DNA of 64,000 bases from a virus, in the IMG/VR virus record IMGVR_UViG_3300029989_000005; one strand, written 5' to 3'. The notes below the pieces were generated by a model, which worked only from the letters and a program-made list of their open reading frames with translations, ran no database searches and was not told where the DNA came from. How positions within the stretch are numbered: the stretch's first letter is position 1; every line of letters starts with the position of its first letter. Below, one piece after another: positions 29,937 to 52,802 of this stretch. A program made the translations under genes and the position numbers.

Positions 29937-30434
29937 TTAATTAACATCGCTAACACCGCTAACACCCGATTGATTACCACAATCTTTACAATCTTTACAA
30001 TCTTTACACGAATAACAATTGGTACAATTGGTACAATTGGTACAACCTCTGTCAGCTAAAGAATATTGACCAAGTTTTTCACAATTAGTACAATTTTTGG
30101 AATGGTCAGATTTAATACAATTTTTACAATCATTACAGTGTTGACAATCAGTACAATCAGTACAATTTTTACAAAAATCACAATCTATACAATTAGCACA
30201 ATCAGAACATTGTATACAATTCACACAGTCTTTGCAATTTGTACTACCTGCCGTATCTATACAATTGGTACAGTTCTTTAACTTCGTACTGATATATGTT
30301 GCTTCTCCTTTTTCATATTTGGATTTACTCCATTTATTACCATTATTAGGGTCAACCCAATAATCACCATGTGATTCTAAAATTGTATCATCACTATTTA
30401 TGTTATAACCTTCAAAAATTTTTAATTTCTTCAT
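29937..30434 (-). CDS. Cys-rich (CxxCxxC) repeat protein with an MKKLKIFE leader
   Basis: 26 Cys residues, mostly at period 3. Confidence 0.75.
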   Translation of the reverse strand: MKKLKIFEGYNINSDDTILESHGDYWVDPNNGNKWSKSKYEKGEATYISTKLKNCTNCIDTAGSTNCKDCVNCIQCSDCANCIDCDFCKNCTDCTDCQHCNDCKNCIKSDHSKNCTNCEKLGQYSLADRGCTNCTNCTNCYSCKDCKDCKDCGNQSGVSGVSDVN

Positions 30435-30457
30435 ATTATTTTATATTTTTATATAAT

Positions 30458-32551
30458 TTATTGTATTCTAGTCATAACGAAATCATAAGTAGTTTCGTTA
30501 ACACAGGTTATATCGAATATTGGATATTTTTGGTCACCCAAATTATCAATAGTTCCAATAAGTTTAGAATAAGCTTTATTTGAACCCGAAACAGAACCAT
30601 CGGAATCGGTGTAAATATATATCGCTCTGTTTTGTATATCAACAGGATGATTAAAAACAATACGCATGGTTTGCCCGTTTTTCCATTTTGTTGATAAATC
30701 ATTTACTTTGATTACCAAATTTGCTTGAGCCGTTTTTTCAATAAAATCATTCTCATGATAAATTAATGTTGATAGAGGTTGTAATACAATTATGTTATTA
30801 CCACTTAGTTCATTGCCCGTTGAAAAATCAAAATTTTTCTTGATAATATTATTATATTGTTGGGTATTGTTGGTTAATGTTATATTTTGGTCAGTTACTA
30901 CAGCCGTAATACCCTGCATTCCATTTACAGAAAATAATACATTAACATCAACATCTGTTTTGCCTTGAAGTATTTGAGTGATCTGAGCTTGTTGTTTACC
31001 AAGTAAGCCCAATATTGTAGATTCATCAACATTATCAACCAATAATTCATTTTGTTTTTTTAGTATTGCTGAAATGGTTGTTAATAAATTGGAATCAGCT
31101 AGCAACCTTTGATATTCTTCATTTTGAGCAATTAATGTTTTTGTGTATGATAACAGTTCCTCATAATTTCTTGATAATAGTTGAATGTTATTTATGGCAT
31201 CCAAGAACATTGACATTGACAAAGTATTGTAATCGTTTACTGATACCTCTATCTTTTTATCAACAGTATTGGTCGAAACATCAAATTTAAAATTAAGTTT
31301 AAGACCATAACCATTACCTGTGTTTCCTAAGAAATTAGATTGTTTTATTTTTTCAAGTGATGTTATCTGAGATATTACATCAACTACAGGTACAATATCG
31401 TCAAGAAACAATACACCGAATAAATTTGTTGACCTTATAGTTTCATCATTTGCATCATATACGTCATAATAAAGCAATAAGGTATTAAAATCAAAATTTG
31501 CCGCACTTGGTGTATTATTAAACTGTGTAAATGTTGAAATTTGATCTATGTTATCATTATTATAATTTACAACCTCTTGATAATTTTCAATATCAAAATC
31601 TATTGAAATGCCATCAAGCCTTGAACGTTTGAATATCACAGCCGTGCTTCCACCACCTCTTGATATAGTATCAGTTGTAGCATCGTTAAATACAGGGTCT
31701 GTAATATAAGAATTTACAGCAAACGCCTTTGAACCATACCAAGATGTTGGTTTTGATGTACCGTTAACAACATACGTCAGCCCACCCTCATTAATGTCTA
31801 TATCATAAACAGCATCAACCGACAAACCTGCAGATGTAGGATTATCATCAATAGTTCTACCTTTTATATATTCGGGGCTTGTAGTAACCTGTATTACAGT
31901 ATCCTCATTATAATTTTCATCGGATATAGACTTGAAAAGCACGGTAGGTGTATTACCATTTTGAGATGGAATATTTATATAGACCTCGTTGAACTGATTT
32001 TCATTTTGTTTAGTGTTAGAACCTTGCATTTCTACATGTCCTATATATTCCACAACTCTTTTGTAAGTGTTAGCGGATGTGTTTTCCTCTAAAAATCTAC
32101 TGTCGGCAAGAGAAGATACTTTCTTTGTGTTATCAGCATTTTGAAATCTTAAAGCACCAATCTCTTTTAACCATTTAAAGAAGATACGCTCAGATACTGT
32201 CCTTAAATTAGCCCTGTTATAGATACTTTGACTTGTAAGATTAGCCTCAAAATTCATGACATAGTTCTGAAAGCTTTCAGAAAAATCAAGCTTATTCTGT
32301 GCATTTGGTTCTGTTAATTGAGTATTTAAACCATTCACATAATGACCCTCTATGTTTAGAAAGTTCATAGAATTTTGGGTATTACCACCTAATGTTGGTT
32401 GTATTTTGGGTAAGTTTAATAATGCATAATGTGAAAACAAAAACTTGTTAGTATTGCTTTGAGGCATAAATGATGCATTGAGGTCTTCCGATGCTGACGG
32501 CATTGTAATAAATACACCCTTTTTAAAAAGTGAGAGAAGTGGAGTAATCAT
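30458..32551 (-). CDS. Probable virion structural protein
   Basis: 697 aa, N/T/S-rich with a central coiled coil; late-type motif at 32563-32575. Confidence 0.6.
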   Translation of the reverse strand: MITPLLSLFKKGVFITMPSASEDLNASFMPQSNTNKFLFSHYALLNLPKIQPTLGGNTQNSMNFLNIEGHYVNGLNTQLTEPNAQNKLDFSESFQNYVMNFEANLTSQSIYNRANLRTVSERIFFKWLKEIGALRFQNADNTKKVSSLADSRFLEENTSANTYKRVVEYIGHVEMQGSNTKQNENQFNEVYINIPSQNGNTPTVLFKSISDENYNEDTVIQVTTSPEYIKGRTIDDNPTSAGLSVDAVYDIDINEGGLTYVVNGTSKPTSWYGSKAFAVNSYITDPVFNDATTDTISRGGGSTAVIFKRSRLDGISIDFDIENYQEVVNYNNDNIDQISTFTQFNNTPSAANFDFNTLLLYYDVYDANDETIRSTNLFGVLFLDDIVPVVDVISQITSLEKIKQSNFLGNTGNGYGLKLNFKFDVSTNTVDKKIEVSVNDYNTLSMSMFLDAINNIQLLSRNYEELLSYTKTLIAQNEEYQRLLADSNLLTTISAILKKQNELLVDNVDESTILGLLGKQQAQITQILQGKTDVDVNVLFSVNGMQGITAVVTDQNITLTNNTQQYNNIIKKNFDFSTGNELSGNNIIVLQPLSTLIYHENDFIEKTAQANLVIKVNDLSTKWKNGQTMRIVFNHPVDIQNRAIYIYTDSDGSVSGSNKAYSKLIGTIDNLGDQKYPIFDITCVNETTYDFVMTRIQ

Positions 32552-32595
32552 ATAAATTATATTTTTAATTATTTAACTCGATGTATAAATACAGA

Positions 32596-32627
32596 AATGA
32601 CTGTCATTATAAGCAATGACAGTCATT
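32596..32627. terminator. Hairpin terminator
   Basis: aatgactgtcatt / aatgacagtcatt. Confidence 0.65.
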
Positions 32628-32639
32628 AAATTAATTACT

Positions 32640-32921
32640 TTACTGTTGTTGTCTGTGTATATCAGATTCAGAGTATGCTATCAATGTATCTTTACCCATA
32701 ACAAATACGTAGCAATGGATTCCTTTTACCTCCCATTTTCTGAGTAATTTTAAATTACGCATATTACTTGGGGTTTTTACAATTTTTGGGGTTTCATTCT
32801 TTGGTATTGTATATGCATTGGATGAAATGATACCAAAACAACAAACCAAAACAACACCAACGATTATTGCCACCTTAACTGTAGTGCCTATTGTACGCAC
32901 AATTAACTTTCCATTTTTCAT
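32640..32921 (-). CDS. Membrane-anchored hypothetical protein
   Basis: N-terminal hydrophobic helix VAIIVGVVLVCCFGII. Confidence 0.6.
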   Translation of the reverse strand: MKNGKLIVRTIGTTVKVAIIVGVVLVCCFGIISSNAYTIPKNETPKIVKTPSNMRNLKLLRKWEVKGIHCYVFVMGKDTLIAYSESDIHRQQQ

Positions 32922-32984
32922 TGTTAATTTTGTTTAATTATTAATTTTTTATATAATTTTTATATTATGATATTGTCTTACGTG

Positions 32985-33419
32985 TCAAATATCCTTAGAT
33001 TCTACTCGTATAGTCCTTAATTTTGACATTAATTCTTTATGTTTTCTTCTGTTTTCAATGGCTTCATCTGATTCAACAAATATTGCATTATCGGGTAATA
33101 AATTTCTAAAATTTAATGGTATATCACCCTGATGCCAAAGGTTTTTTGTCTGAACAATACGACCATCGTTAAATATGATTTTAAACTGTCTTCCGCCATG
33201 ACCTTGAAAAAACGTTTCACTACTATCAGGATAAAAAGTATAATGGCTACCATTAACAATGGCTATTTTTTTTGAGTACCCGTTTGTACCATTTCCGTAG
33301 CTTTTAACTTTCTCATTCCAAAAATTAATATGAAAACACTTATCACCACACATTACGGGAACTTCATCCCTATAATGAGATTCCTCTATTTCTTTTCCGC
33401 AAACTATACATTTTACCAT
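32985..33419 (-). CDS. Hypothetical phage protein
   Basis: CIVCG...GHGGRQF...NLWHQG.IP. Confidence 0.65.
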   Translation of the reverse strand: MVKCIVCGKEIEESHYRDEVPVMCGDKCFHINFWNEKVKSYGNGTNGYSKKIAIVNGSHYTFYPDSSETFFQGHGGRQFKIIFNDGRIVQTKNLWHQGDIPLNFRNLLPDNAIFVESDEAIENRRKHKELMSKLRTIRVESKDI

Positions 33420-33423
33420 AATA

Positions 33424-34593
33424 TTAAAATATTGATAATTTTTGTTTCTTTTGTATTCTCATAATTTTTATAGGTAATAGTAATTCATCGTGTCCACTAA
33501 TTGGTTTGCCTATGTACTCATGGCAATAAGAGGTTCTAGAAAGTACTTTTTTCATCATTCTTCTTTTATAAATACTGTTACCATAATCTATATCGCTTCT
33601 GTATTTGCCATTCTTACTAGTACCTCTCCAAAGCGGTGATTTATTGCGGTGTTCGCCAAGTGCGGGGTTTATAGTTTTTGTAAATAATCTCCCACCATTA
33701 TGAACTATTATTCCCGCTGTAAATTCAGAAATTGATTTGCCTATACCCATACCCTGAAAATCAGGAAGTACAACAGTTCTGCTGAGTGCATACCCGTTGG
33801 GAAAGTTACCCGTTGGGAAAGTTTTATAAACACATATTCCAACAGGAATGTCATCCCATACAAATACAAGATATCCGAAGCCCTTGTTAGATTCCGAGGT
33901 TAGATAATGATGTTTTTTAAAGATTTCCCAAGTATTAGGCTCTGTTCTATAGACTTGCAAGTCAATTTTAGGTCTTCCTTGCCTTCGGCAGTCATGTCTT
34001 TTGGACATGCCTCCATTTTGAAGATTAACAGACCAATCAGGTAATAACCATTCTAACACATCATAGTGTACCGATGCAATTATTATCTTTTTGTTTAATT
34101 TCCTTACATATTTTTGTATTGCGAATGACATGGACTTTGCAACATATCTATCAACAACCGATGTATATTCGTCAATGAGTATTATCTCACCATCTTTTGA
34201 TGATGCAATTAGATAGGCTAATTTTGCTCTGTATTGTTCACCATTTGAAAGTAAATGAAAAGGTCTTAGCCATGTGGGAACTGATGAAAGCCCAACAGAT
34301 GTTAAAGCAAATGTAGCTTCTTTTGGGTCTAAGAAATTAAAGTTACTTATAAGTGCCTTGTTAGTATCAAACTTTACATCAGGTATGTTACCAATTGATC
34401 TTAATATCGATGATTTACCCGAACCGCTGCTTCCAAGTATTATTCCAATGTTCCAATCAGACTCATTCATTTCTGATAAATCAAAAATGATTTCGGTTGA
34501 TGTTTTATCAGAGTCTTGTATATCAAACGTTGAATAAACATATTCTGTATATTCGTCATTGATTATTTCATGCTCAAGATTTATCTTACTCAT
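33424..34593 (-). CDS. ABC-type ATPase fused to a GNAT (Mom-like) acetyltransferase
   Basis: GSSGSGKSS, LSNGEQYR and LIDEYTS motifs; C-terminal KHHYL...SRTVVLPDFQGMGIG. Confidence 0.85.
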   Translation of the reverse strand: MSKINLEHEIINDEYTEYVYSTFDIQDSDKTSTEIIFDLSEMNESDWNIGIILGSSGSGKSSILRSIGNIPDVKFDTNKALISNFNFLDPKEATFALTSVGLSSVPTWLRPFHLLSNGEQYRAKLAYLIASSKDGEIILIDEYTSVVDRYVAKSMSFAIQKYVRKLNKKIIIASVHYDVLEWLLPDWSVNLQNGGMSKRHDCRRQGRPKIDLQVYRTEPNTWEIFKKHHYLTSESNKGFGYLVFVWDDIPVGICVYKTFPTGNFPNGYALSRTVVLPDFQGMGIGKSISEFTAGIIVHNGGRLFTKTINPALGEHRNKSPLWRGTSKNGKYRSDIDYGNSIYKRRMMKKVLSRTSYCHEYIGKPISGHDELLLPIKIMRIQKKQKLSIF

Positions 34594-34877
34594 TCTGCAC
34601 CAAATTTATCAACACACAATTCATATTCTTCCACAGATATTTCCCTAAGTTCATAGTTTCCAAGACATCCTCTAAAACCTCTTAAGTCGTTACAAATTTT
34701 GTCAAATTCTATTTCTTCGGATTTACTAAAATCATCAGTCATAAAAGTGTCCTCAATAAAATTTTCTTCATCTAAACCATGTCTTTTACAATATATAAAA
34801 CTAGCCTCAATAATCATTAAGTTTTTATGAGTCTTTTTTAATATCCTTGGTGTGATTTTTAATACATCAGTTTCCAT
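34590..34877 (-). CDS. Hypothetical protein
   Basis: 95 aa, 4-bp overlap with the next gene. Confidence 0.6.
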   Translation of the reverse strand: METDVLKITPRILKKTHKNLMIIEASFIYCKRHGLDEENFIEDTFMTDDFSKSEEIEFDKICNDLRGFRGCLGNYELREISVEEYELCVDKFGAE

Positions 34878-34881
34878 AATG

Positions 34882-35316
34882 TTAATCTATTTGTAAGTTT
34901 AAGTCATTGCCTGTTAAAAGAGCACCGTTTGTTATAGCCAATTCATCGAAATATTTTTGCCAATCGTCTGTTTTGCCAATTTCAAAATCTTCAACATATG
35001 GTATTGGTTTACATACCATACCATCTTTAATTGATATTTTACCAAGTATTTCATTTTCTCCCAACAAAACGAATTTTTCCTTATTGAATTTAACGAACAC
35101 ACCCGACATATCACCATAAAAAACAATGTCTGATTTATTAAATTTATATGCCAATGCTGAAATTGATACAACCACACCGACATTACCCGCCAATGTTTCA
35201 CCAATTATGTGATGATTTATTTCAGGTTGCCAAACTAGCACATTTTTCTTTGTAAGTTCCACGAATTCACATAGCTCAAGAACTTTCTTTAATTTATTTT
35301 CCATTTTATTATCCAA
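34882..35316 (-). CDS. GroES-like co-chaperonin (T4 gp31 analogue)
   Basis: GVVVSI...KSDIVFYGDMSG...FVLLGENEILGKI resembles the GroES C-terminal signature. Confidence 0.7.
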   Translation of the reverse strand: MDNKMENKLKKVLELCEFVELTKKNVLVWQPEINHHIIGETLAGNVGVVVSISALAYKFNKSDIVFYGDMSGVFVKFNKEKFVLLGENEILGKISIKDGMVCKPIPYVEDFEIGKTDDWQKYFDELAITNGALLTGNDLNLQID

Positions 35317-35878
35317 AAATATAAGTATTTACTAATGTCGATAACATTTTTAATATTCTTTGACGTTTAAGGTAAGATATTTGTGATTTGTTAATTACAC
35401 ACATGTCAACCTTGGATTCCTTAATTTTTATGTAAATATCAGTGCCTTTTATTGAAAATAGCATACCATCATCAGTACCACAGCTGAATAAAAATTCCTG
35501 ATATTTATCTATATTTTTAAACTCAGTATTATCAGAAAGATATTTTACTCTTTCTATATATTGTGTAACATATTTAGAACTCATATTATTTTGTAATTCT
35601 TCCGCAGAATTCAAAAAATTAATTAATTTAGGTTTTAATAGTTCTAAATCGTTTAATTCTTTATTATTAACAGATAATATAACCATTTTACTATTTTCAT
35701 CATAGCATGTTAAATGATAAGGTATATAATTAGTATTTTCACTTTTATCAATAATGAATGATATGTGGAATTTTTGGCTGTACATCATTATTCTACCATT
35801 TTCAATTTCAAAAAAAGGTAAAAACTGTTCAAATAATGATGTGCTAATGGATTGCAGTGCATCAATTATATCTTTCAT
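35309..35878 (-). CDS. Hypothetical protein
   Basis: 189-aa ORF. Confidence 0.6.
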   Translation of the reverse strand: MKDIIDALQSISTSLFEQFLPFFEIENGRIMMYSQKFHISFIIDKSENTNYIPYHLTCYDENSKMVILSVNNKELNDLELLKPKLINFLNSAEELQNNMSSKYVTQYIERVKYLSDNTEFKNIDKYQEFLFSCGTDDGMLFSIKGTDIYIKIKESKVDMCVINKSQISYLKRQRILKMLSTLVNTYIFG

Positions 35879-35899
35879 ATTTTAAATAATTAAAAATTT

Positions 35900-36247
35900 A
35901 TGATAACTGTTATAGACTTAGACATATTAAATTCTACTGATGATGATTTAACAGACCTTCTATACGTTTATATCCAAGAGATATTAATGGTACTCAATAC
36001 AGATAAAACTGAGGTGTTGGGGTGTCCGACTATGACAGTAAATTTAGAAGAATTAGTGTATGATATAAATCTTGATGAATCAGCTATACAAAAATTGATA
36101 CTTGATAAATTGAGTCAATACACATCTTTATATGATAATTTTGATACTCAAATCAATGTAAAATTTGCAAAAGGAACTGAGAGGGATGTTTGTTTAATAG
36201 ATTTCTCCATAAATTCAGAAGCCAATTTTTCTTTAATGATTAAATAA
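35900..36247 (+). CDS. Baseplate wedge subunit, T4 gp25-like
   Basis: QEI.MVL.T.KTEVLG.P...VNLEELVYD; has its own late motif at 35883-35895. Confidence 0.7.
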   Translation: MITVIDLDILNSTDDDLTDLLYVYIQEILMVLNTDKTEVLGCPTMTVNLEELVYDINLDESAIQKLILDKLSQYTSLYDNFDTQINVKFAKGTERDVCLIDFSINSEANFSLMIK

Positions 36248-36947
36248 AATCATTAAAGAAAAATTGGAAATACTTGTTTATCCAAAATGAGTCAATTATA
36301 TCATCTATTGGCTTGGCAACCTCATTAACGCTCTTACCCTTTTTATTTTTTAACGATGCAAACTTATCACAGTCATTAGTCATAAGTTTATGAAAGCCAC
36401 AAGCCGTCAAATTTTCATCTTTCAACGCAATAAAAGATATAAGTAATTGGTACTTGTCAAAATTACCACCACCCGCAAATTTTTTAACTTGTGGTGCTGT
36501 TACCAAAAACAGATCATCCATTTCAAAAAATGTGGTTTTTAAAAGGTTTGACTTTAATTCCATTGTGTTTTCAATAATTTGTATGAAAGTATCAGAAGCA
36601 GAACCATATGAATAATTCTCAAAAACTAATATATTCCTGTTTTCATTGGAAACATGCATGCATATAAAATCAGATAATTGCCTGTTATATGATATACAAT
36701 TATTTATATGGTCTTTTTCCCAACCCGACAATCCATTTACTCGTGATTTTACCGCTTTGATTGGTGGTCTGTGATATTTTTGAACGATTACATAATTCGT
36801 TATACTTTCAGCTATACTTTCAGTTTTTTTATCCTTATATATATTTACAAATGATAAAAATTTATGTGATTTGGTGTCACAATTATATATTGTGACACCC
36901 GTTGAATTAAGTGAATAATCTACACTTACTATTTCTGTTTCAACCAT
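36240..36947 (-). CDS. RuvC-like Holliday junction resolvase
   Basis: SVDYSLNSTG, VFENYSYG, QVKKFA.G.GN.DK and DDIIDSF motifs. Confidence 0.8.
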   Translation of the reverse strand: MVETEIVSVDYSLNSTGVTIYNCDTKSHKFLSFVNIYKDKKTESIAESITNYVIVQKYHRPPIKAVKSRVNGLSGWEKDHINNCISYNRQLSDFICMHVSNENRNILVFENYSYGSASDTFIQIIENTMELKSNLLKTTFFEMDDLFLVTAPQVKKFAGGGNFDKYQLLISFIALKDENLTACGFHKLMTNDCDKFASLKNKKGKSVNEVAKPIDDIIDSFWINKYFQFFFNDFI

Positions 36948-40381: not shown

Positions 40382-40469
40382 AACTATTTTATTATATTAT
40401 ATTTTGATTATTTAAATCTAGCCTAATTATAATAATGTATAATAATGATTTACTTAAAAATATTAAAAA

Positions 40470-41923: not shown

Positions 41924-41956
41924 AATACAATACACAATATTAAAAAATAGAATATT

Positions 41957-42430: not shown

Positions 42431-42460
42431 GTTAATCATAATATTAGAAAATAAAATATT

Positions 42461-42838
42461 ATGGATACGATTTTTGAACTTATCAAACCCAATCCAATAC
42501 CTGAATTTATTATTTGTGCTGCAAATTATTATTATGATGGTAATAAACATAATCATATGCCCAAAAATATTGAGGTAGGTTTTGTGATTTGTGGGAGAAG
42601 GCATCATAACTGCATTGCAACATTTGCTCAGTTTATGGGATTTTTTGAAGACAACAAATATAAAGGTGAGGCTATAAAAACTCGTAAAACAGAGGTACAA
42701 GGATTCCTTACAAGCACTGATAGATTTGTTGACCGTAAAGAGGCTTATAAAATAGCATTTGAAGCAAACCAAATTATCGGTCCAAACAAAGGATGCCCTG
42801 AAAATTCAATAGGTCTGACTAGCGAGGACTTGTACTAA
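42461..42838 (+). CDS. Hypothetical phage protein
   Basis: ICAA...GRRHHNC...QGFLTS..RFVDRKEA...SEDLY. Confidence 0.7.
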   Translation: MDTIFELIKPNPIPEFIICAANYYYDGNKHNHMPKNIEVGFVICGRRHHNCIATFAQFMGFFEDNKYKGEAIKTRKTEVQGFLTSTDRFVDRKEAYKIAFEANQIIGPNKGCPENSIGLTSEDLY

Positions 42839-42855
42839 TTTAAAACTTATAAATT

Positions 42856-43533: not shown

Positions 43534-43537
43534 AACT

Positions 43538-44242
43538 ATGGATATAGACAAAACACAAATAATTAATGTTGCGGGCAGACATTTTACTTTGGCAAAGGTT
43601 ATAATGCTAGATAGTAATCATGAACCAACTTTAAAAGGTGGTGAACTATGGGTTAATTATGATAGCAAATTGAAGCTTTCAAGACCTAATTCTATATGTC
43701 CTATACAATCTTTCAAACATCTTTACATTTATATTAAATGTAAAATAAAAGAAGGTGATTGGTGCTATGATTCCGAATTTAATATAATATTTCAAAAAAA
43801 TAAGTTTGCTTATAAATTCAATGATAAGTATCAATTTAAAATAATTGCCACAACCGATGATATATTAACCGTTACTACTGTTAATATATGGAATAATGGC
43901 GAGAAATCAGCATTACCTCAATCAGCATTACCTCAACCATCAGGGCTATTTATTAAACAATATATTGAATCGTATGGTACAGGTGCTACAATCACTGACG
44001 TTTTGGTAGAATGTGAAACTCAATATCCAAGTTATAAAGATTCATTACATGAAACTAATGGTATAGAGGTTATTAAGGTAAATCCTAGCAACAAGGTAAA
44101 TCCTAGCAATATAATTAATATAATAGTACAGAAAGATCATTATACTAAATCTGAACTAATAGATTTTGTCATGTGGTATTCAGGAATGGATAAAGACAAA
44201 GTTATAAGGCAAATTAATAGATATGAATCTGGATTAAGGTAA
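43538..44242 (+). CDS. Hypothetical protein, paralog family member 2
   Basis: HLYI...IKEGDWC...KIIATT...LPQPS..FIK...DVLVEC. Confidence 0.7.
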   Translation: MDIDKTQIINVAGRHFTLAKVIMLDSNHEPTLKGGELWVNYDSKLKLSRPNSICPIQSFKHLYIYIKCKIKEGDWCYDSEFNIIFQKNKFAYKFNDKYQFKIIATTDDILTVTTVNIWNNGEKSALPQSALPQPSGLFIKQYIESYGTGATITDVLVECETQYPSYKDSLHETNGIEVIKVNPSNKVNPSNIINIIVQKDHYTKSELIDFVMWYSGMDKDKVIRQINRYESGLR

Positions 44243-44251
44243 TATTAAATT

Positions 44252-44470
44252 ATGGAAGAAGATAATGTATACTTAGGTGATGGGGTTTATGCCTCATTTG
44301 ATGGGTTTCAAATTTGGTTGGCTGTTGGTGACCACACGAATAATATAGTAGCATTAGAACCTGCAGTTATGAAAGAGCTAATTAAATATAAAGAATCTAT
44401 TGATAAAAAGCTTGAAGATAAATACAAAAATGATACTATGAACTTAATTGATAAATCTGAACTAATATAA
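44252..44470 (+). CDS. Hypothetical phage protein
   Basis: YLGDGVYASFDG..IWL...ALEP. Confidence 0.7.
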   Translation: MEEDNVYLGDGVYASFDGFQIWLAVGDHTNNIVALEPAVMKELIKYKESIDKKLEDKYKNDTMNLIDKSELI

Positions 44471-44478
44471 TTAAAACT

Positions 44479-45012
44479 ATGGACAAAAAACAATTCTTGG
44501 GGGTAAATTTGTTATCTGATCTGAAATTCATTGATACTTTTAGAAATACGGTTCATTTGTTAACAGGTGTACAAACCGATATTAACAGTTCAATTTATTG
44601 TGGTGGTATCTATTCACACGGTGTATATATGTCGTGGGAAAATTGCACCCCAATTTTGCACCATATTTCTGATTTGTATAAATCAATTACGCATAACGGT
44701 GAAACGTTTATACCAATAGTTGAACTTGCAAGGTTAGCATATTCTAAATTAAATTGGAATTGTGGAATTGAGGAAGATATTAATGGTATAAAGTGTTTTT
44801 TGTACTCAAAAAGCGGCAAAAAGGAATATAGATTTCTTTATTGTGAAAGTGAGCAGTCATTTTCTACTGTTTCTATTCCACAGAATGAAACCAAATACGT
44901 TCCGTATCAGTTACAGCTATTTCAAAAATTAATAAGTTGGCATTTTAATTTAATGTATGAATCAGAACCTTTTATTGATGTTAATTCACTTCCCGAAAAT
45001 CCTTACAAATAA
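44479..45012 (+). CDS. Hypothetical phage protein
   Basis: 177 aa; PIL..ISDL.K.I.HNGE.FIP...NPYK. Confidence 0.7.
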   Translation: MDKKQFLGVNLLSDLKFIDTFRNTVHLLTGVQTDINSSIYCGGIYSHGVYMSWENCTPILHHISDLYKSITHNGETFIPIVELARLAYSKLNWNCGIEEDINGIKCFLYSKSGKKEYRFLYCESEQSFSTVSIPQNETKYVPYQLQLFQKLISWHFNLMYESEPFIDVNSLPENPYK

Positions 45013-45020
45013 TTAAAATT

Positions 45021-45929
45021 ATGAAGATAGATAAAAGTCAAGTTATTGCAATGGATGGTAAATATTACGTTAAGTCTAATATAATATTAGCTAGTTCTAC
45101 ATCTTTACAGAGGGGTGATATAGTAATTGAGAACGGAAAATTGAGAATTGCTGAATCTTTATCAAAAGATTTACTAAACACAAAAGCTAAACCACATCAT
45201 CTTTACTTCATTGTTGATGAATTAATTGAAGAGGGTACTGATTGTTGGGCACTCAATCCAAACACGAAATACTTGAAAGAACACTTGAAATATTATACTA
45301 CTGATTCTAAAGGTATAAAGTATGCTAATGGTTATAGATTGGCTGATTGGAAGAAAATTATTGCATCTACCAACGAACTATTGGATTGGGATACTATTTC
45401 TACCAAGAGCCTATTACCAAGACCATCTGAACAATTTATAAGACGATTTATAAAGTCATGTAATATCATAGGTGTTGCTAACATAGATTCATCAAATTAT
45501 GTAAATGCTTTAGTTGAATGTACTTTTGAATTATCAAATAATGAAAATGAAGCAGGTAATTTAATTCCTGAGTTTTACCTAAAACTTGATGCCAACGGGT
45601 ATATTATTGTAAAGATACAATTGGACACGCAAGAGCAAACATATAAGCCAAATATTGATATAATCAAAATGGCTATTTCTAAAGGTTGTGAATGTAGCAA
45701 TAATGGTAGATATTTGCAAGATATTCAGGCATGGTTAAGGGATGAACATGATATACATGTTCAACCTATTATTCATTCATGGTCTAACAGAACTTACCAA
45801 TTTAGAATTCACAGTGATTTGATCTATGTTAATTCTATGAATTATAAGAATACGCCAATAATCGGTACACATGATTACGCTTTAGAAATGGGGCTTATTA
45901 TTGCCATGGAAAGTGTTCCTACATTATAA
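45021..45929 (+). CDS. Hypothetical protein, paralog family member 3, with an extra C-terminal domain
   Basis: HLYF...KIIAST...LPRPS..FI...LVEC plus QAWLRDEHDIHV. Confidence 0.7.
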   Translation: MKIDKSQVIAMDGKYYVKSNIILASSTSLQRGDIVIENGKLRIAESLSKDLLNTKAKPHHLYFIVDELIEEGTDCWALNPNTKYLKEHLKYYTTDSKGIKYANGYRLADWKKIIASTNELLDWDTISTKSLLPRPSEQFIRRFIKSCNIIGVANIDSSNYVNALVECTFELSNNENEAGNLIPEFYLKLDANGYIIVKIQLDTQEQTYKPNIDIIKMAISKGCECSNNGRYLQDIQAWLRDEHDIHVQPIIHSWSNRTYQFRIHSDLIYVNSMNYKNTPIIGTHDYALEMGLIIAMESVPTL

Positions 45930-45957
45930 AATTATAAACATTAAAAATTATTCTATT

Positions 45958-46074
45958 ATGAAAAAATTAGTCTTTTTACTTTTTATTATTTGCATCTCTT
46001 TTTCCTCGTGTTCAGACAACGGATTGTATCGGGTTCAGCAGAAAATAAATACCCCGCATTACAAACACATGTAG
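45958..46074 (+). CDS. 38-aa lipoprotein-like peptide (possibly truncated)
   Basis: MKKLVFLLFIICISFSSCSDN... is a signal peptide with lipobox FSSC. Confidence 0.5.
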   Translation: MKKLVFLLFIICISFSSCSDNGLYRVQQKINTPHYKHM

Positions 46075-46078
46075 TAAA

Positions 46079-46190
46079 TTAAACACGTGTAGAATGGATT
46101 GGGCAACTGCAAGTACCACGAATAATCAGTATAGTGATTTAATATGATAGGGTATTGTGCAAGTATTAGGTATCCAATACACGTGTTTAA
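46079..46190. ncRNA. Candidate structured RNA or inverted-repeat element upstream of thyX
   Basis: 13-bp closing stem ttaaacacgtgta/tacacgtgtttaa plus three nested stems. Confidence 0.45.
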
Positions 46191-46240
46191 AAACAGACTT
46201 TATTAACTAAATTATTAACAATTGAAACAATTTAAACAAA

Positions 46241-47137
46241 ATGAAATTAATTAAGCCATCTTTTGAAATTATTGGTCAACAGTCGGGTGAAATTGGAATG
46301 CTAAAGCACATAGAAACCTGTGGTAGAGTTGCTTGGAAATCAGAGGATAAAATTACCGATGATTCCCATATCAAGTTTCTTGAAATGCTTAAGGGTGTTA
46401 ATCATGGTTCTGTACTAGAGCACGGTACTATTTATCTCACGGTTAAATGGTACTCATTACTTATTATTTTATTTTTCTTCCTTAACAAATATTCCAAGGT
46501 GAAAAATTGGAAATATATTACAACTAATTACAGGGTAATAACTGACAATAATAAAGTTAATACCATGAAGAAATACATGAGTAAACCTACAAAATTTCAT
46601 GAAAAGAGATATACAGTAAGATTTATTTGTGATAGGGGTGTTTCACATGAATTTGTAAGGCATCGGGTATTCTCGTTTACTCAGGAGTCTACACGTTTTT
46701 GTAATTACATCAAAGAAAAATTTGGTAATTGTATAACTTTTATTTATCCTGTTTGGTTACAAGGTAAAGAAGAAATTGTACAGGGTTTGGTCGATATGGC
46801 AAATATAAACAATAAAGATGTTTATGAACTTGGTCATGATGAATCCATGCCTTTAGAAAAAAGAGGACTTTGTAGTTTCGTTTATGATATGTCAAATTCC
46901 GAACACGGATATAATTTTCAGATTGCTGCAGGATGGAAACCACAACAGGCACGTGCCGTACTTCCAAACTCTCTGAAAACTGAACTTATTATGACAGGTT
47001 TCATGACAGATTGGAGGCACTTCTTTAAATTAAGATGTGCACCCGCAGCCCATCCACAGGCTAGAGAACTTGCTATACCTTTGCTTGGTAGATTCCAATG
47101 TTACACAAATAGCTTTAATAATATAACATTAGATTAA
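46241..47137 (+). CDS. thyX: FAD-dependent thymidylate synthase
   Basis: HGSVLEH, HEFVRHRVFSFTQESTR, ARAVLP and WRHFFKLR motifs. Confidence 0.95.
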   Translation: MKLIKPSFEIIGQQSGEIGMLKHIETCGRVAWKSEDKITDDSHIKFLEMLKGVNHGSVLEHGTIYLTVKWYSLLIILFFFLNKYSKVKNWKYITTNYRVITDNNKVNTMKKYMSKPTKFHEKRYTVRFICDRGVSHEFVRHRVFSFTQESTRFCNYIKEKFGNCITFIYPVWLQGKEEIVQGLVDMANINNKDVYELGHDESMPLEKRGLCSFVYDMSNSEHGYNFQIAAGWKPQQARAVLPNSLKTELIMTGFMTDWRHFFKLRCAPAAHPQARELAIPLLGRFQCYTNSFNNITLD

Positions 47138-47148
47138 ATAAGTAATAA

Positions 47149-47502
47149 ATGGAAAGGGGTGCTACTAGATTAGTATTAAAAATTGGGGAATTTGTTATCA
47201 AATTCCCCAATTTCACATATAGCCATCTAAATTTTCTAAATGGCTGCCATGCCAATTGGTCTGAAAGAAATTTTTGTAAAGTGTTCAAGAATTATGATAA
47301 TGGTAGACTGTATAATAAAGTTGCACCATCATTATTTTGCTCAATTTTTGGACTAATTCAGGTTCAAAAATATTGCAAACCTCTTGGTAGAGAATTGACT
47401 GATAATGAAGTTGAATATTTTAAAAATGTACAGGACTTTGATTTAAAATCGACAAATTTTGGAATATACAAAGGTAGAGTTGTGTGTTTGGATTATCCAT
47501 GA
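47149..47502 (+). CDS. Small protein-kinase-like protein
   Basis: GATR.V...VIKFP...N..E...DLKSTNFG...V.LDY. Confidence 0.55.
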   Translation: MERGATRLVLKIGEFVIKFPNFTYSHLNFLNGCHANWSERNFCKVFKNYDNGRLYNKVAPSLFCSIFGLIQVQKYCKPLGRELTDNEVEYFKNVQDFDLKSTNFGIYKGRVVCLDYP

Positions 47503-47539
47503 AAGTATAAATAATTTTAAACAACACAGATTTTAAACA

Positions 47540-47577
47540 AAGCCTGACAGTATTATTTACAATTGTCAGGTTTTTTT
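47540..47577 (+). terminator. Rho-independent terminator
   Basis: gcctgacagt / attgtcaggt followed by a T-tract. Confidence 0.7.
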
Positions 47578-47605
47578 GTATTTTGTAAATAATAAAAATT
47601 TGAAA

Positions 47606-50347
47606 ATGGGTGATTTAAATGCTTTATCGATATTTAATAAAAATGGTAATAAATTAGAACTTTCCTATAATAAGGAATATGATATATTACAAGGTATAAT
47701 GTATCTACCTGAGGTTTCAACCGATTTGATTGAGAATGAAACCTTATTCATACTTGAGGAAACAGGTGGTGAATTTATACAGCCTAAATCATTCGGTGAT
47801 TTAACCGTTAGTTTGATGAATTCCATGGATTATCAAATTTTTACAGTTGGAAACCCACATGATGAATTCCCCAAGGTAGAATTTATAGATAAGAAAGTTT
47901 TTAATGTGGAAATTCTACCACCACAATCTATTAAAAAAATAACAAATGGTAGGTTGTACAATTGGTATGCTATAACAAACACTAGAAAGCTTGCACCTAC
48001 AGGATGGCGTGTTCCATCAAGATCAGATTGGGAAACTTTGGTAACATTCCTAGCAGAAAATGGATATAATTATGATGGTAGTATTACAACAAGTTTTAGT
48101 AATAATAAAGTGGCAAAAGCTTTAGCATCTAAAGAGGGTTGGAACATATTACCTAGTACGTATGTTGGTTCTGCAGGTTATAATTCATCCCTGAATAATT
48201 CATCAGGGATGAATCTCTATCCATCAGGTGTTCAGGTGGTTTCGGGTTCACAGACAGCATCAAATGCAATGGGTAGAGTGTGTGGCTTATCATTTACTGA
48301 TATGGGTGCATATGGAGCTGTAATTAGTAATGGTAATTCCTTTTCATTTAGTACGCCAACAGGTAAACATGATGGTATGTCTTGTAGATTGATTAAAGAG
48401 GATGGTGTATTTGTAGAAAGTGTAATTATTGATGGTGATGTATATCATTGTGTAAAGCATGGAAATCAAGTCTGGTTGCAAGAAAATTTGGCTGTTGAAC
48501 ATTATAGTGATGGTACGCAAATTGGCTCAGACTTTATAGGTACTAATGGTGCTGTAACAGCTTATAATGGGGATGAAAACAATGTTTATATTATTACAAC
48601 AGTTGAAGGTAGCGGAAACATACGTAAGCCATTTAGAGTAGATTTTGCCGTTAAATCATCTACAGAAAAAACAGTTATAGACAAATTGCTTGTCTATAGT
48701 GCTTTAATTGGGAGGATAATAGCTGAAATCTCAGTATATATAGAGGTAGTTGGTGAGGATGAAAGGTTAACGGCAAAGCTTGCTGATTTCGGGGAATATA
48801 TCACAGCAAATGAGGAATATATATTCCGTAACAGTGACATCAAAGAGGAACTTACTAATCATATATTACTTAATGAAAAGAAAAAGGAATTTATTCTTGA
48901 AATGCACAATATCAAGCCTTACTTTTCAGCTTATAAAGGTCTTATAAACATACTTAACCTATTTGATTACCCCGATTTAACACTTAAGGAATATTGGGTT
49001 GATATAAAGACGGGAAAATATATAGCAGAAGATATTAAACTATATGAACAGGGAAGACTTGACGAAACTATACGTTATAATAGCCAACTTAAAAAGACCT
49101 CATTTTTCGGGTTGTACTATCCAATAAATCATACTAATGGTGAATATACACAAGATGGTTTGCCCGAAACAGTGGATAGTTTCATGTTTTCAAACGAGGA
49201 AATTATAATAAAATTGTTTGGTCTTAAGAATTGGATTAAAGACCGTGAAATCGGTGGTATTTCATCTATTATAGACATTATTGGTGAGATAACTTACTTT
49301 AACAAATATGACATAAATTTTTGGTATGATGATTGGAACTTAATTTCTGAATCCATCTCACAGGATAATATTCGCTTTTCAATAAATGGGGTAGAGGATA
49401 ATAACATAATAAACGTTCTACTTTCCGATTTATCAGGTTTTACATTTGATACACCTATTAGCAAAGTAGGTGCTGTTATAAATGTTAAAAATTTAACCTT
49501 TGGTGTACAGATTCAGGATGTTGACGTTACATTTGAGCAATTAAAAACAGAAAACGCCACATATTCAATATTTTTCAATAATGTAGATAAATTCAAGTAT
49601 TATCAAATAGAATGGTCAGCCGTTTCTGTTAAAACAGGTTTATTAGTTGATTCCAAGATTGGTAAACTTGATGATTTACTAGAAACTACACTTACTTTAC
49701 CAAATAGTGGACTTTTTAACATACAAATGAAACTGTATAAGTTTAATAATGAAATGGCTGTATTAACCAAACATTCAATAATTAATGTTTCACCAAAATC
49801 CATCTCATTGACCGCCTTTGTTAATACAAGTGAAATTATAAATCAAACACCTGAATACATAGCACTTTTTGATACTTATGCACCTAAAACATTAAAGGAT
49901 TTTAGAAAGATAAAATTTGTTGATGATGATTTCATGGCTTATGCAAATCATAAGTTTATGTTCTTTGATAACATACAATTCAATGATATAATCTCTCAGA
50001 CATTCCAAACATATGGTCAAAATTTCAACCCTGATAAAGATTTGTTACCATTTGCTAAGGGAATGACTAAAATATTCACTGATAATGTAGCCATTCACGT
50101 TTCGGATACCATATTTTTCAACTTGAAGAGGTCACAATTTGTTGGTAAATCAAATGCAAATTGGAAATTACTAGATGAAAATGGAACAGTTATTGTTGAG
50201 CTTGATAATTATTTATTTTTCTGTTATACATTTTTCAAATCGGGAAAATATTCCTTACAGGTTACATTGTATAATAATAAAGGTGATAACAAGACAGAAC
50301 TTTTCTCAAATTATATAACTGTTCATAAATATAAAATAGACTATTAA
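47606..50347 (+). CDS. Large virion (baseplate wedge-like) protein with an inserted, circularly permuted Fib_succ_major (FISUMP) domain
   Basis: ATG at 47606 after a late motif at 47586-47598; GRLYNWYA...APTGWRVPS comes before IDGDVYHCVKHGNQVWLQENL; Ig/PKD-like C-terminus. Confidence 0.7.
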   Translation: MGDLNALSIFNKNGNKLELSYNKEYDILQGIMYLPEVSTDLIENETLFILEETGGEFIQPKSFGDLTVSLMNSMDYQIFTVGNPHDEFPKVEFIDKKVFNVEILPPQSIKKITNGRLYNWYAITNTRKLAPTGWRVPSRSDWETLVTFLAENGYNYDGSITTSFSNNKVAKALASKEGWNILPSTYVGSAGYNSSLNNSSGMNLYPSGVQVVSGSQTASNAMGRVCGLSFTDMGAYGAVISNGNSFSFSTPTGKHDGMSCRLIKEDGVFVESVIIDGDVYHCVKHGNQVWLQENLAVEHYSDGTQIGSDFIGTNGAVTAYNGDENNVYIITTVEGSGNIRKPFRVDFAVKSSTEKTVIDKLLVYSALIGRIIAEISVYIEVVGEDERLTAKLADFGEYITANEEYIFRNSDIKEELTNHILLNEKKKEFILEMHNIKPYFSAYKGLINILNLFDYPDLTLKEYWVDIKTGKYIAEDIKLYEQGRLDETIRYNSQLKKTSFFGLYYPINHTNGEYTQDGLPETVDSFMFSNEEIIIKLFGLKNWIKDREIGGISSIIDIIGEITYFNKYDINFWYDDWNLISESISQDNIRFSINGVEDNNIINVLLSDLSGFTFDTPISKVGAVINVKNLTFGVQIQDVDVTFEQLKTENATYSIFFNNVDKFKYYQIEWSAVSVKTGLLVDSKIGKLDDLLETTLTLPNSGLFNIQMKLYKFNNEMAVLTKHSIINVSPKSISLTAFVNTSEIINQTPEYIALFDTYAPKTLKDFRKIKFVDDDFMAYANHKFMFFDNIQFNDIISQTFQTYGQNFNPDKDLLPFAKGMTKIFTDNVAIHVSDTIFFNLKRSQFVGKSNANWKLLDENGTVIVELDNYLFFCYTFFKSGKYSLQVTLYNNKGDNKTELFSNYITVHKYKIDY

Positions 50348-50385
50348 TACGGTAAAGCACATGAAAAAGTTAAGAATATATTCAC

Positions 50386-50431
50386 GGCTACAGACGATAT
50401 ACTTTCCTTGCACTTTGACCATTTTTGTGGT
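50386..50431 (-). repeat. Dispersed 46-bp intergenic element, copy C
   Basis: Reverse complement accacaaaaatggtcaaagtgcaaggaaagtatatcgtctgtagcc. Confidence 0.8.
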
Positions 50432-50460
50432 ATCAGCATAACAAAGAATCATTTTAATAC

Positions 50461-50497
50461 AAAGAAACCATCAAGGATTAACTTGGTGGCTTCTTTC
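50461..50497. terminator. Hairpin between convergent genes
   Basis: aaagaaaccatcaag / cttggtggcttcttt (imperfect). Confidence 0.55.
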
Positions 50498-50593
50498 ATG
50501 TTGTAGTTTTTACATTATCGCAATGGTTACTACTTTACTGACATTTCCAATTCTTAATATTTATAAACTAAACTATTATGCACGTTATTTATT

Positions 50594-50833
50594 TTAACCC
50601 TCATATGGTAGTTTATCTTGTGAGTTCCTTTTAGCCTCATTTTCTCTGTCGGTAATAACTGTTTTATATGCTAGATCAATGCTATCACCTAATCTTACCA
50701 ATGAGTTAAATGTTTTAAGTTCTTCACCCTTAAGTTCAGATTCAACCTGTTCCATAGTCATATCCTCAAAGATATTGATATTTTTATCTGTACCTGATGG
50801 TATATTAGCCTCAAAAATTTTTAACTTTTTCAT
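50594..50833 (-). CDS. Small protein with an MKKLKIFE leader (putative internal head protein)
   Basis: MKKLKIFEA...; late motif at 50836-50848. Confidence 0.7.
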   Translation of the reverse strand: MKKLKIFEANIPSGTDKNINIFEDMTMEQVESELKGEELKTFNSLVRLGDSIDLAYKTVITDRENEAKRNSQDKLPYEG

Positions 50834-50845
50834 ATTTTTAATTAT

Positions 50846-51088
50846 TTATAATTTATCCTGATAACCTTTTTTAAGTTCCTCCAATTTAAGGCATGCATCA
50901 TCTATGATTTCCTGTGCATCCTTTTGAATTTGCTTACCTGTTTCCTTTGTTTCATCAAACATAGCTATTAAATCAGATTTAAATTCAGTACCTATATTCT
51001 TGAAATCCGATTTTATCCCATCTATGAAATCCTTGAAAATGTTTACACTTTCATTAACAGGTTTATTCAGTGTGTTAGATTTTTTCAT
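50846..51088 (-). CDS. Small protein with a VNES motif (putative internal head protein)
   Basis: MKKSNTLNKPVNES... Confidence 0.6.
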   Translation of the reverse strand: MKKSNTLNKPVNESVNIFKDFIDGIKSDFKNIGTEFKSDLIAMFDETKETGKQIQKDAQEIIDDACLKLEELKKGYQDKL

Positions 51089-51474
51089 AATGACAGTTCC
51101 TCACTTGCTTGAATTAAGAATAAATATTCCCTTGTTGTAATCATGTCATTTATAAGTAAATATAGCAGTCTATCCTGATACATGTTACATGAATTATAAA
51201 CCAAATGATAAATATAAATGTCCTCTACCTTAAGTTGACTTTTAAAATGTTCAATCTGTTTTTCTTTAGATACAACTAAATTAAACGCTGAATCAGCCTG
51301 ATAAAACATTTTGGTATAACGGTTAGCCTTTAATTCTCTGTTAGTCTGATGCTTAGCTGAATCACTTGCTTGATATAATATAGTCAAAACATTTTTAGGC
51401 TCTTTATTTTGACTGAACACAGTTATACATGTTAATAACATCAAAGATAAAATAAGTGTAAATTTTGTTCTCAT
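51085..51474 (-). CDS. Secreted or membrane hypothetical protein
   Basis: Signal peptide MRTKFTLILSLMLLTCITVFSQ. Confidence 0.6.
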   Translation of the reverse strand: MRTKFTLILSLMLLTCITVFSQNKEPKNVLTILYQASDSAKHQTNRELKANRYTKMFYQADSAFNLVVSKEKQIEHFKSQLKVEDIYIYHLVYNSCNMYQDRLLYLLINDMITTREYLFLIQASEELSL

Positions 51475-51478
51475 AATT

Positions 51479-51574
51479 TTAAAGTATTATTAAATATACA
51501 ATTATTACTATACACAACCCTATTTTTAACAAGGTGTAAAGACACCCTATACTTTCTGTTTGTTTTGTTGGCAT
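51479..51574 (-). CDS. 31-aa membrane peptide; not in the ORF track
   Basis: MPTKQTESIGCLYTLLKIGLCIVIIVYLIIL fills the intergenic gap. Confidence 0.45.
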   Translation of the reverse strand: MPTKQTESIGCLYTLLKIGLCIVIIVYLIIL

Positions 51575-51592
51575 AACTTTAAAATTAATTGG

Positions 51593-51949
51593 TTATCTCT
51601 TGGTAAGTATTATTGAGTAAGTATTATCAGATGAATCAGTACTTGTAATTTCAATCTTTTTTCCATCATCAGATTTAACTTTCCAATTGTTATATCCAAG
51701 ACCTGAATCATTAAGTGCTTTGGCAACAGATTTTCCATTATCCTCAGCACCTGTAATTACTATTTCTACAGCTGATGCCATATCCTTTGAACCTGTATTT
51801 TCCAACTGAGGAAATTTTGCCTCTCTCATGTTATCGGATAAATTGAATCCAAAACTTGATAAAGCAGCATTTGTACCACTTGATATACGCCAATTATCTC
51901 CAATAACTGATTCATTTATTTTGCTTTCAAAAACTTTTGACTTTTTCAT
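51593..51949 (-). CDS. Small protein with an MKKSKVFESKINES leader (putative internal head protein)
   Basis: Two tandem xxES motifs at the N-terminus. Confidence 0.7.
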   Translation of the reverse strand: MKKSKVFESKINESVIGDNWRISSGTNAALSSFGFNLSDNMREAKFPQLENTGSKDMASAVEIVITGAEDNGKSVAKALNDSGLGYNNWKVKSDDGKKIEITSTDSSDNTYSIILTKR

Positions 51950-52175
51950 ATTGTATATTTATTTTATTATTTTTATAATCTGTGTAAAGACCTTTGCCAT
52001 AATATGTCCAACTTTCTATTAATTTTGGACTCTGATTAAATTTACCAACTAATTGTTCTGTTGTCATTTGCTTGGTTTCAGTCATTATGTAACAATAAAC
52101 TGTATTCCTTTCCAAGGTGGTTAACTTACTGAATTCATTGGTATCGAAAAATGACAATAATTGTGAATTTTCCAT
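51927..52175 (-). CDS. HTH-like protein, paralog of 52175..52450
   Basis: LTTLERNTVYCYIM.E...MT...W...G.GLY. Confidence 0.6.
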   Translation of the reverse strand: MENSQLLSFFDTNEFSKLTTLERNTVYCYIMTETKQMTTEQLVGKFNQSPKLIESWTYYGKGLYTDYKNNKINIQYEKVKSF

Positions 52176-52450
52176 TACATAAATGCGTTTTGAGGTTTGA
52201 ACATTATATCAGGATTTATTTTATTTTCAGAGTATAATCCAATACCATGTTCAACCCAACCACGTGCCAAATTTAGTGAAATATCTAATTTCTTGGCTAC
52301 ATCGGCTAATGTCATTTTACCTGATTCAATCATAATATAACTATAAACAATATTTCTCTTTAATGATGTTAATTGTTTATAATTATCAGATTTTAGGAAT
52401 AACAACATTGTATTGTATTCACCCGATTCAAATATCTTAAGCTTTTTCAT
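52175..52450 (-). CDS. Sigma-region-4-like HTH protein with an MKKLKIFE leader
   Basis: LTSLKRNIV...MTLADVAKKLDISLNLARGW. Confidence 0.6.
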   Translation of the reverse strand: MKKLKIFESGEYNTMLLFLKSDNYKQLTSLKRNIVYSYIMIESGKMTLADVAKKLDISLNLARGWVEHGIGLYSENKINPDIMFKPQNAFM

Positions 52451-52451
52451 A

Positions 52452-52802
52452 TTAAAATAAACCCTCTATTGATCTATAACCCTCGTTTGTTATTTTATAT
52501 AGTTCAAATTCCTCACCTTTCACTTTGAACATACATTCAAAAAGCATACCATCGTTGTTGACACCAAAATAATAATCATTACTAATTTTGACGTGATCTA
52601 AAATGGTAGAAATTTGACCAAGCCCATAATGACCCTTGATTACAAAATCAACATGGTCTATGTTCATACAGCTAATATAGAATTCAAATATTTCATCCAT
52701 ATTAGCTGTACTCAGAAATTCCACAACTTTCTGAGATTCATTAGACAGCTTAGCCGATTCATATATTCTATTGGTTTCCAAGTCCTCAGGTGCGTTATAC
52801 AT
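52452..52802 (-). CDS. Hypothetical protein with an N-terminal RIYES motif
   Basis: Late motif at 52808-52820. Confidence 0.6.
   Translation of the reverse strand: MYNAPEDLETNRIYESAKLSNESQKVVEFLSTANMDEIFEFYISCMNIDHVDFVIKGHYGLGQISTILDHVKISNDYYFGVNNDGMLFECMFKVKGEEFELYKITNEGYRSIEGLF

Follow-up and report, generated by a model that had tools for sequence, protein, structure and literature searches.

A short N-terminal leader shared by unrelated small proteins of a peat phage as a putative capsid-targeting propeptide

The DNA considered here, a stretch of 64,000 nucleotides referred to as the window, corresponds to positions 25204-89203, read on the reverse strand, of the IMG/VR virus record IMGVR_UViG_3300029989_000005, which has a length of 90,251 bp and a guanine-cytosine (GC) content of 30%. 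On its minus strand lies a T4-type structural block comprising a protease, a major capsid protein and a tail sheath of 1022 amino acids (aa), and on the same strand six small open reading frames (ORFs) begin with MKKLKIFE or a related leader. The question raised by this locus is why proteins with dissimilar bodies should open with the same few residues. The explanation considered rather likely here, by analogy with phage T4, is that the leader is a propeptide of the capsid-targeting-sequence (CTS) kind, which would load a fast-changing set of small proteins into the phage head. The six tagged proteins would probably be loaded into the capsid and trimmed there, as are the internal proteins of T4.

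Leader-bearing genes, cleavage motif and head protease

The preliminary description had named six small ORFs with their start positions, and a check of ORFs and translations found all of them on the minus strand at those starts. They encode proteins of 79-165 aa, each with a leader of 8-15 residues which ends in [IV]-[FNY]-E and is followed by S, A or G. In the following list, as in the text, they are labelled cargo 1 to cargo 6, and a slash marks a predicted cut.

29937-30434, minus strand: cargo 1, 165 aa; leader MKKLKIFE/G at 30411-30434; Cys-rich body of CxxC repeats; phrog_15341
50594-50833, minus strand: cargo 2, 79 aa; leader MKKLKIFE/A at 50810-50833; the mature part would be acidic and of 8.1 kDa
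50846-51088, minus strand: cargo 3, 80 aa; 13-residue leader ending PVNE/S at 51050-51088; helical, acidic
51593-51949, minus strand: cargo 4, 118 aa; double-site leader MKKSKVFE/SKINE/S at 51911-51949
52175-52450, minus strand: cargo 5, 91 aa; leader MKKLKIFE/S at 52427-52450
52452-52802, minus strand: cargo 6, 116 aa; 15-residue leader ending NRIYE/S at 52758-52802; heads its own transcription unit

Cargo 1 has in addition a second, loose site (ILE/S, residues 18-21). Past the leader, that is from residue ~9-15 onwards, an all-against-all BLAST comparison of the six proteins found no significant similarity. The octapeptide MKKLKIFE is identical in cargos 1, 2 and 5, and six of its eight codons differ, all synonymously; since the codons vary and the peptide does not, the conserved element is the peptide, under selection, and not a DNA repeat. 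Computed for the predicted cuts, the mature cargos would be of 7.7-17 kDa and mostly acidic.

The end of the leader recurs in the head proteins. Counted as [IVL][FNY]E[SAG] over the 143 ORFs (27,258 aa) of the 90-kb contig, the motif occurs 27 times, with 12 copies in the protease-scaffold protein, two in the N-terminus of the capsid protein and seven in the six leaders, all of these within the first 15 residues; the remaining six copies are spread over the other ~25,000 aa. The 12 copies in the protease-scaffold protein compare with 0.35 expected from its amino-acid composition (Poisson P 5e-15), a ~30-fold enrichment, and the repeated occurrence of the motif in this fusion and in the capsid N-terminus, which had been pointed out previously, is thereby corroborated. 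The motif falls within the first 18 residues of seven ORFs, whereas 500 shuffles gave 0.9 such ORFs on average and never more than 4. The sites share a context wider than the motif itself, typically K/R-[IV]-[NF]-E-S, and the N-termini of the protease and of the capsid protein resemble longer versions of the cargo leaders. The two head genes are as follows.

20765-23191, minus strand: head maturation protease with a scaffold-like region, 808 aa; phrog_207, expectation value (E) 6.6e-24
19104-20720, minus strand: major capsid protein of the Gp23 family, 538 aa; Pfam Gp23, E 1.7e-11

The protease domain occupies about residues 1-185 of the 808-aa protein, whose own N-terminus holds the sites MIFE/S, RINE/S and YIFE/G. 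Nine of the 12 sites lie in the remaining ~620 residues, which are rich in Glu and Lys; this region therefore fits a scaffold that gets chopped up, as does gp22 of T4. When a model of the N-terminal domain was compared with the Protein Data Bank (PDB) using Foldseek, T4 gp21 (5JBL) was the sole significant match (E 5e-8, probability 1.0, template-modelling score 0.72 by target), the next fold match having an E of 0.04. The AlphaFold model of the domain is mediocre (mean pLDDT 63), and the link to gp21 comes from the fold search alone; neither sequence nor profile searches matched the protease to any PDB entry. The phrog_207 match and the gp21 fold match agree with the earlier proposal that the phage encodes a head protease of the gp21 type.

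The N-terminal propeptide of the capsid protein, encoded at ~20580-20720, contains the sites KIFE/R, KVNE/S and SVFE/A, and cuts are predicted after E30 and E47, the Glu residues of its two strict copies of the motif. The capsid and protease sites are kept in all three of the relatives described below. Those of the capsid protein are found also in Flavobacterium phage MaF61, which has KIYE/A, KISE/K and KIYE/S at matching places and whose protease-scaffold protein shows the same arrangement, with 1404 aa and 10 sites.

The leader in related phages and on different cargos

Three relatives were compared as whole genomes: G001 (167 kb, capsid protein 86% identical, 29% GC), G002 (65% identical, 45% GC) and G003 (50% identical, 41% GC). 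A scan of IMG/VR with degenerate leader DNA gave 12 matches, eight of which lie in six phage contigs of 149-167 kb, and the same six contigs were recovered independently by a search with the capsid protein. In G001, 11 ORFs start with MK[KPT]-x-K-[IVLA]-[FN]-E, and a control pattern had no matches. G003 and four sister contigs carry MKKLKIFE/G on a conserved 154-aa protein and MKKLRIFE/S on another, so that the octapeptide is kept in phages of 41% GC with a capsid protein just 50% identical; the leaders of G002 are longer and end in [IV]NE/[SA]. As to a search for N-terminal leaders over the genome and its relatives, which the preliminary description had proposed, the motif is found near the N-terminus of seven ORFs here, and leader-bearing ORFs number 11 in G001 and form sets of their own in G002 and G003.

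The most conserved tagged cargo of the clade (154-178 aa) lies at 142123-142659 in G001, 138479-138943 in G003 and 99162-99692 in G002. It is 43% identical between lineages and has sub-threshold matches to the WYL domain (E 0.04-0.07); the G001 copy has a double leader. A 1118-aa protein of G001 (156346-159702), in a region absent from the 90-kb record, contains eight strict motifs against 0.5 expected (P 9e-8), and it is likely to be a further head or core protein that undergoes processing.

The preliminary description had further held that the leader is a module set on unrelated cargos, and this is borne out by its absence from outside homologues and from a paralogue, as well as by its presence on different cargos in the relatives. 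The paralogue lies beside cargo 5.

51927-52175, minus strand: leaderless paralogue of cargo 5, 82 aa

Its residues 2-73 align to residues 11-79 of cargo 5 with 39% identity (E 7e-14), and since the alignment begins at residue 2 of the one and residue 11 of the other, the paralogue is without the leader. Cargo 1 belongs to a widespread family of Cys-rich CxxC-repeat proteins, with 57 matches in other phages and in bacteria. All but one of its 14 aligned homologues begin at a conserved NGYWVD block, and the first ~18 residues of cargo 1 are therefore an extension; in its structural model, the leader region is of low confidence and without secondary structure. The closest homologue of cargo 6, P0063 (50%), retains NRVYE/S, whereas more distant homologues begin at the domain and are leaderless. 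A homologue of cargo 4, P0061 (66% identical), retains both cut sites with conservative changes, and the homologue of cargo 3 in G001 (68387-68650, 43% identity) bears the other leader type, MKKLKVFE/S.

Cargo 1 stands behind a larger gene with which it shares a transcription unit.

30458-32551, minus strand: 697-aa gene, heads the transcription unit with cargo 1 and ends 23 nt before the start of cargo 1

This gene is 74% identical to its counterpart at 28700-30793 in G001, and no match was found for it in Pfam, PHROG or the PDB. The slot behind it holds one cargo here and three different cargos in tandem in G001 (77, 72 and 83 aa), all of them leader-bearing. Between cargo 1 and the next gene, at 29720-29760, there is a perfect hairpin with a stem of ~22 bp, followed on the coding strand by an A-run and no T-run; in the corresponding position of G001, the three cassettes are likewise followed by a hairpin. 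As for the second cluster of leader genes, the earlier statement that it lies in an accessory region agrees with its position at the end of a ~13.5-kb stretch nearly absent from G001. The ORFs of this hyperplastic stretch (~51085-64341 in window numbering) are small, lie on the minus strand and have next to no homologues in G001; three leader genes are found among them.

A promoter-like motif precedes several of these genes.

32569-32576, minus strand: TTAAATAA promoter-like motif, 25 nt upstream of the 697-aa gene
50842-50849, minus strand: ATAAATAA promoter-like motif, 16 nt upstream of cargo 2; the same variant precedes the protease gene
52814-52821, minus strand: TTAAATAA promoter-like motif, 19 nt upstream of cargo 6

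The protease gene of the window likewise has the motif, 29 nt upstream. The 8-mers most enriched upstream of genes are TAAATAAT and TTAAATAA, and [AT]TAAATAA is the sole block upstream of the protease gene that is common to all four genomes. In G003, 12 of 14 copies of TTAAATAA and 23 of 26 copies of [ATG]TAAATAA stand on the coding strand no more than 60 nt ahead of a gene; the genes preceded by TTAAATAA that can be named are those for the portal, sheath, baseplate wedge and protease, and the homologue of the 697-aa gene is likewise found behind it. Consistent with the preliminary description, which had placed two of the leader genes (starts 50833 and 52802) behind a late-promoter motif, these two starts have it at a distance of 16-19 nt and share it with the protease, sheath, portal and baseplate genes. 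A scan of the cluster for consensus sigma-70 promoters stayed at background level (22 found, 20 expected). That the leader genes are expressed late together with the head genes would fit this arrangement, although the sequence evidence for it is inconclusive.

Regarding the bodies of the cargos, Pfam and PHROG searches gave no family match for four of the six, cargo 2 included. Cargo 1 models as a narrow solenoid; a fold search with this model found no significant match, the best rows being pentapeptide-repeat solenoids with E above 0.1, and no functional claim is therefore made for it. Cargo 5 resembles small helix-turn-helix proteins of the sigma-70 region 4 or HTH_23-like kind (Atlas neighbours scoring <0.9), which offers a lead, and only a lead, to its body being a small helix-turn-helix protein. 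Within the clade, a tagged protein of G001 (70720-71259) is a solo InPase domain (PF18823, E 1.4e-54), and a homologue with a decayed leader is present on this contig at 18732-19268, outside the window (PF18823, E 1.2e-50). The InPase domain occurs mainly in phage proteins predicted to be packaged in the virion and injected (Iyer et al. 2017, PMC5512222); its link to head cargo is independent of the leader, though computational as well.

Known systems, proposed mechanism and rival explanations

In T4, a CTS is present on IPI, IPII, IPIII and Alt and is removed by the prohead protease gp21 (Mullaney and Black 1996, reviewed in PMC9026906 and PMC3012670), which cuts after L/I-x-E and has such a site in its own N-terminus (PMC9026906). 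For packaging, the first 10 residues of IPIII are enough, the determinants of targeting and of processing are separable, and the set of internal proteins is not conserved among relatives of T4, in which CTS-like starts are nevertheless retained (PMC9026906, PMC3012670). The facts on the gp21 cut site and on the internal-protein CTS which the preliminary description had given are as published in these sources.

The locus described here resembles T4 in several respects: a short N-terminal propeptide (10-20 residues) ends in aliphatic-x-Glu, an identical or near-identical leader stands on otherwise unrelated small proteins, the set of cargos varies among related phages, the same cut motif is found in the scaffold and in the capsid propeptide, and the protease has the gp21 fold. 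It differs from T4 in that the residue before Glu is restricted to F, N or Y and the residue after the cut to S, A or G. Moreover, the number of tagged genes is higher, with at least six in this phage and 11 in the G001 genome against four in T4, and the probable host belongs to the Bacteroidota. A further difference is the fusion of the protease to a scaffold-like protein, gp21 and gp22 being separate in T4. In P2 gpO and herpesvirus UL26, as in the 808-aa protein, maturation protease and scaffold form one polypeptide which is cut at several sites; these proteases have other specificities, and neither is known to load unrelated cargo by means of a common short leader.

Giant phages provide another parallel. 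The proteases of phiKZ, 201phi2-1 and SPN3US (gp175, gp268 and gp245) are likewise diverged enzymes of the gp21 type which cut after Glu and process themselves, with several cut sites per propeptide, and identical N-termini on diverged proteins have been read there as a CTS-like feature (PMC5694885). Their propeptides are mostly longer than 100 residues, with the motif S/A/G-x-E or A-x-E (PMC5694885), whereas the leaders here have 8-15 residues, as in T4; unlike in the giant phages, no sign of an inner body or of a virion RNA polymerase was seen in this window. The tagged solo InPase of the clade (PF18823) belongs to the domain repertoire of the virion-packaged polyvalent and Dar-type proteins (PMC5512222). 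Polyvalent proteins, however, are very large, multidomain and often tied to MuF or portal domains (PMC5512222), while the tagged proteins of this clade are single small domains, each with a short address.

From these parallels we infer a sequence of core binding, cleavage, virion retention and ejection. The tagged proteins would be made late in infection, together with the head proteins, and their N-terminus, which is short, basic and hydrophobic (M-K-K-x-K-[IV]-[FN]-E or, in its longer form, a stretch ending in [IV]-N-E), would bind the prohead core, a role assigned here to the scaffold part of the protease-scaffold fusion. Once activated inside the prohead, the gp21-type protease would cut after the Glu of [IV]-[FNY]-E. 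By this activity the scaffold would be chopped, the 47-residue propeptide of the capsid protein removed and the mature cargos of 7.7-17 kDa released inside the shell, where they would remain with the DNA and be expected to enter the host alongside it; the anti-defence or host-takeover roles which the preliminary description had suggested for them are putative. As the address has just ~8 residues, new cargos could be recruited by its fusion to any small gene, which would account for the variable cassette slots. A set of this kind would grow as unrelated small genes gain the 8-residue address and occupy exchangeable slots behind late genes.

If the tag does work as in T4, a simple sequence rule would identify the proteins that these uncultured peat phages carry into the cell before gene expression, which are the likeliest to meet the host defences first. 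The tag and its cut site ([IV]-[FN]-E, then S, A or G) are short, well defined and open to direct assay. As such, the idea extends well-known T4 biology and introduces no new principle. A wider proposal, which appears doubtful at present, is that the tag is a portable address valid throughout the lineage, that the injected proteome can be read from sequence and that some functions are deployed in two phases. The tagged protein with a sigma region 4-like helix-turn-helix would then be delivered with the DNA and its leaderless paralogue made after entry, and the Cys-rich solenoid protein and the pyrophosphatase would have been drawn into the head simply by gaining the tag. This proposal rests on a tag that is unchanged across 50% capsid identity and a shift of 12 points in GC.

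A number of points weigh against the CTS-like interpretation. The evidence for packaging, cleavage and ejection is sequence-based and indirect. The motif was defined post hoc from these very proteins, independent replication being provided by G001-G003, and the leader starting at 52802 has no MKK start and is the weakest case of the six. The leader also has no sequence relation to the T4 CTS, MKTYQEFIAE, and is alike in general form alone; what is claimed is therefore an analogy of mechanism and not homology of the tags. For the protease, the match to the Pfam family Peptidase_S77 (PF03420) reached 16.7 bits (E 0.0054) and thus stayed below the gathering score of 27. His79, Ser142, Ser143 and Ser146 are invariant in a four-sequence alignment of the N-terminal 230 residues and are candidate catalytic residues, putatively equivalent to those of gp21. 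The nearest cultured relative, Flavobacterium phage MaF61, is without an MKK-type leader and has only few candidate N-terminal sites, and the leader of the InPase homologue on this contig reads IFK, not IFE, so that it would not be cut at that site; this protein may be targeted but left uncut there. With respect to timing, the promoter-like motif is less specific in this genome of 30% GC, 21 of its 56 copies being upstream of genes, and the leader genes come last in a long series of small accessory genes and could be read early too.

Some of the same observations could be explained if the tagged proteins were small accessories of the prohead core or scaffold, like gp67 and gp68 of T4, which would assist in building the head and would be cut by the protease and then expelled or degraded instead of being delivered as effectors. 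In T4, core and internal proteins indeed share one cut motif (PMC9026906). Cargo 3 in particular is helical, acidic and conserved in G001, with weak similarity to the scaffold part of the fused MaF61 protease (E 5e-4) and to coiled-coil families, and may therefore resemble a small scaffold or core protein more closely than an effector. For the set as a whole this explanation is unlikely. A gene-by-gene comparison found no counterpart for four of the six cargos in G001, despite a capsid protein 86% identical, and these cannot therefore be essential head-assembly parts; no cargo has strict internal cut sites beyond its leader, and the cargos of the clade include a Cys-rich repeat protein, a helix-turn-helix-like protein and an InPase enzyme.

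The N-terminus could also serve another role, either as a translation-start context in an AT-rich host without Shine-Dalgarno sequences or as a tag for degradation or localisation that some other factor of phage or host would read. MKK starts are common in AT-rich genomes, and the exact octapeptide occurs by chance on unrelated metagenome ORFs, starts of DNA methyltransferases included: a metagenome scan with the exact leader DNA gave at least 118 matches, mostly on short out-of-frame ORFs or unrelated proteins, so that the octapeptide alone is no marker outside this phage clade. Such a role is nevertheless very unlikely, since the synonymous codon variation and the persistence of the peptide at 41% GC argue against a signal at the RNA level, and the last four residues of the leader are the motif that is ~30-fold enriched in the protease-scaffold protein and present in the capsid propeptide, a match which an unrelated tag would not predict. 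Finally, the proteins are short, and divergence could have erased the similarity among them, so that the leaders might be a product of chance or the remnants of one diverged paralogue family. This is extremely improbable in view of the seven ORFs with an N-terminal motif, where 0.9 were expected and none of 500 shuffles reached seven, and of three cargos that fall in separate families whose other members are without the leader.

Source of the DNA, host and minor observations

DNA of the phage is present in many peat metagenomes, and the 24 runs found for positions 45000-54000 of the window were all of peat metagenome DNA, with no RNA run among them. The 118-aa and 91-aa cargos, the two that were looked up, are found too on a contig of 172,977 bp. 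In the phage collection, the nearest relatives of the capsid protein are those of Flavobacterium phage MaF61 (36%), Sphingomonas phage PAU, Tenacibaculum phages and Lak phages, and a peat bacterium of the Bacteroidota is the probable host. At 47606-50347, behind the promoter motif of the structural genes, a protein of 913 aa has a Fib_succ_major domain (E 9e-21). This could be a fibre or receptor-binding protein of the sort typical of elements associated with Bacteroidota.

In two metagenome contigs (L067 and L099), unrelated proteins like DNA cytosine methyltransferases start with the octapeptide, followed by FAG(I/Y)GG. An ORF of 66 aa at 62825-63025 of the window has a 16-residue start ending GKIFE/F, like the capsid N-terminus and the leaders and with F after the Glu; it is a borderline case and was left out of the counts. 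At position 63733 the window has C and the virus record T, an R/Q change in a 65-aa ORF (63582-63779).

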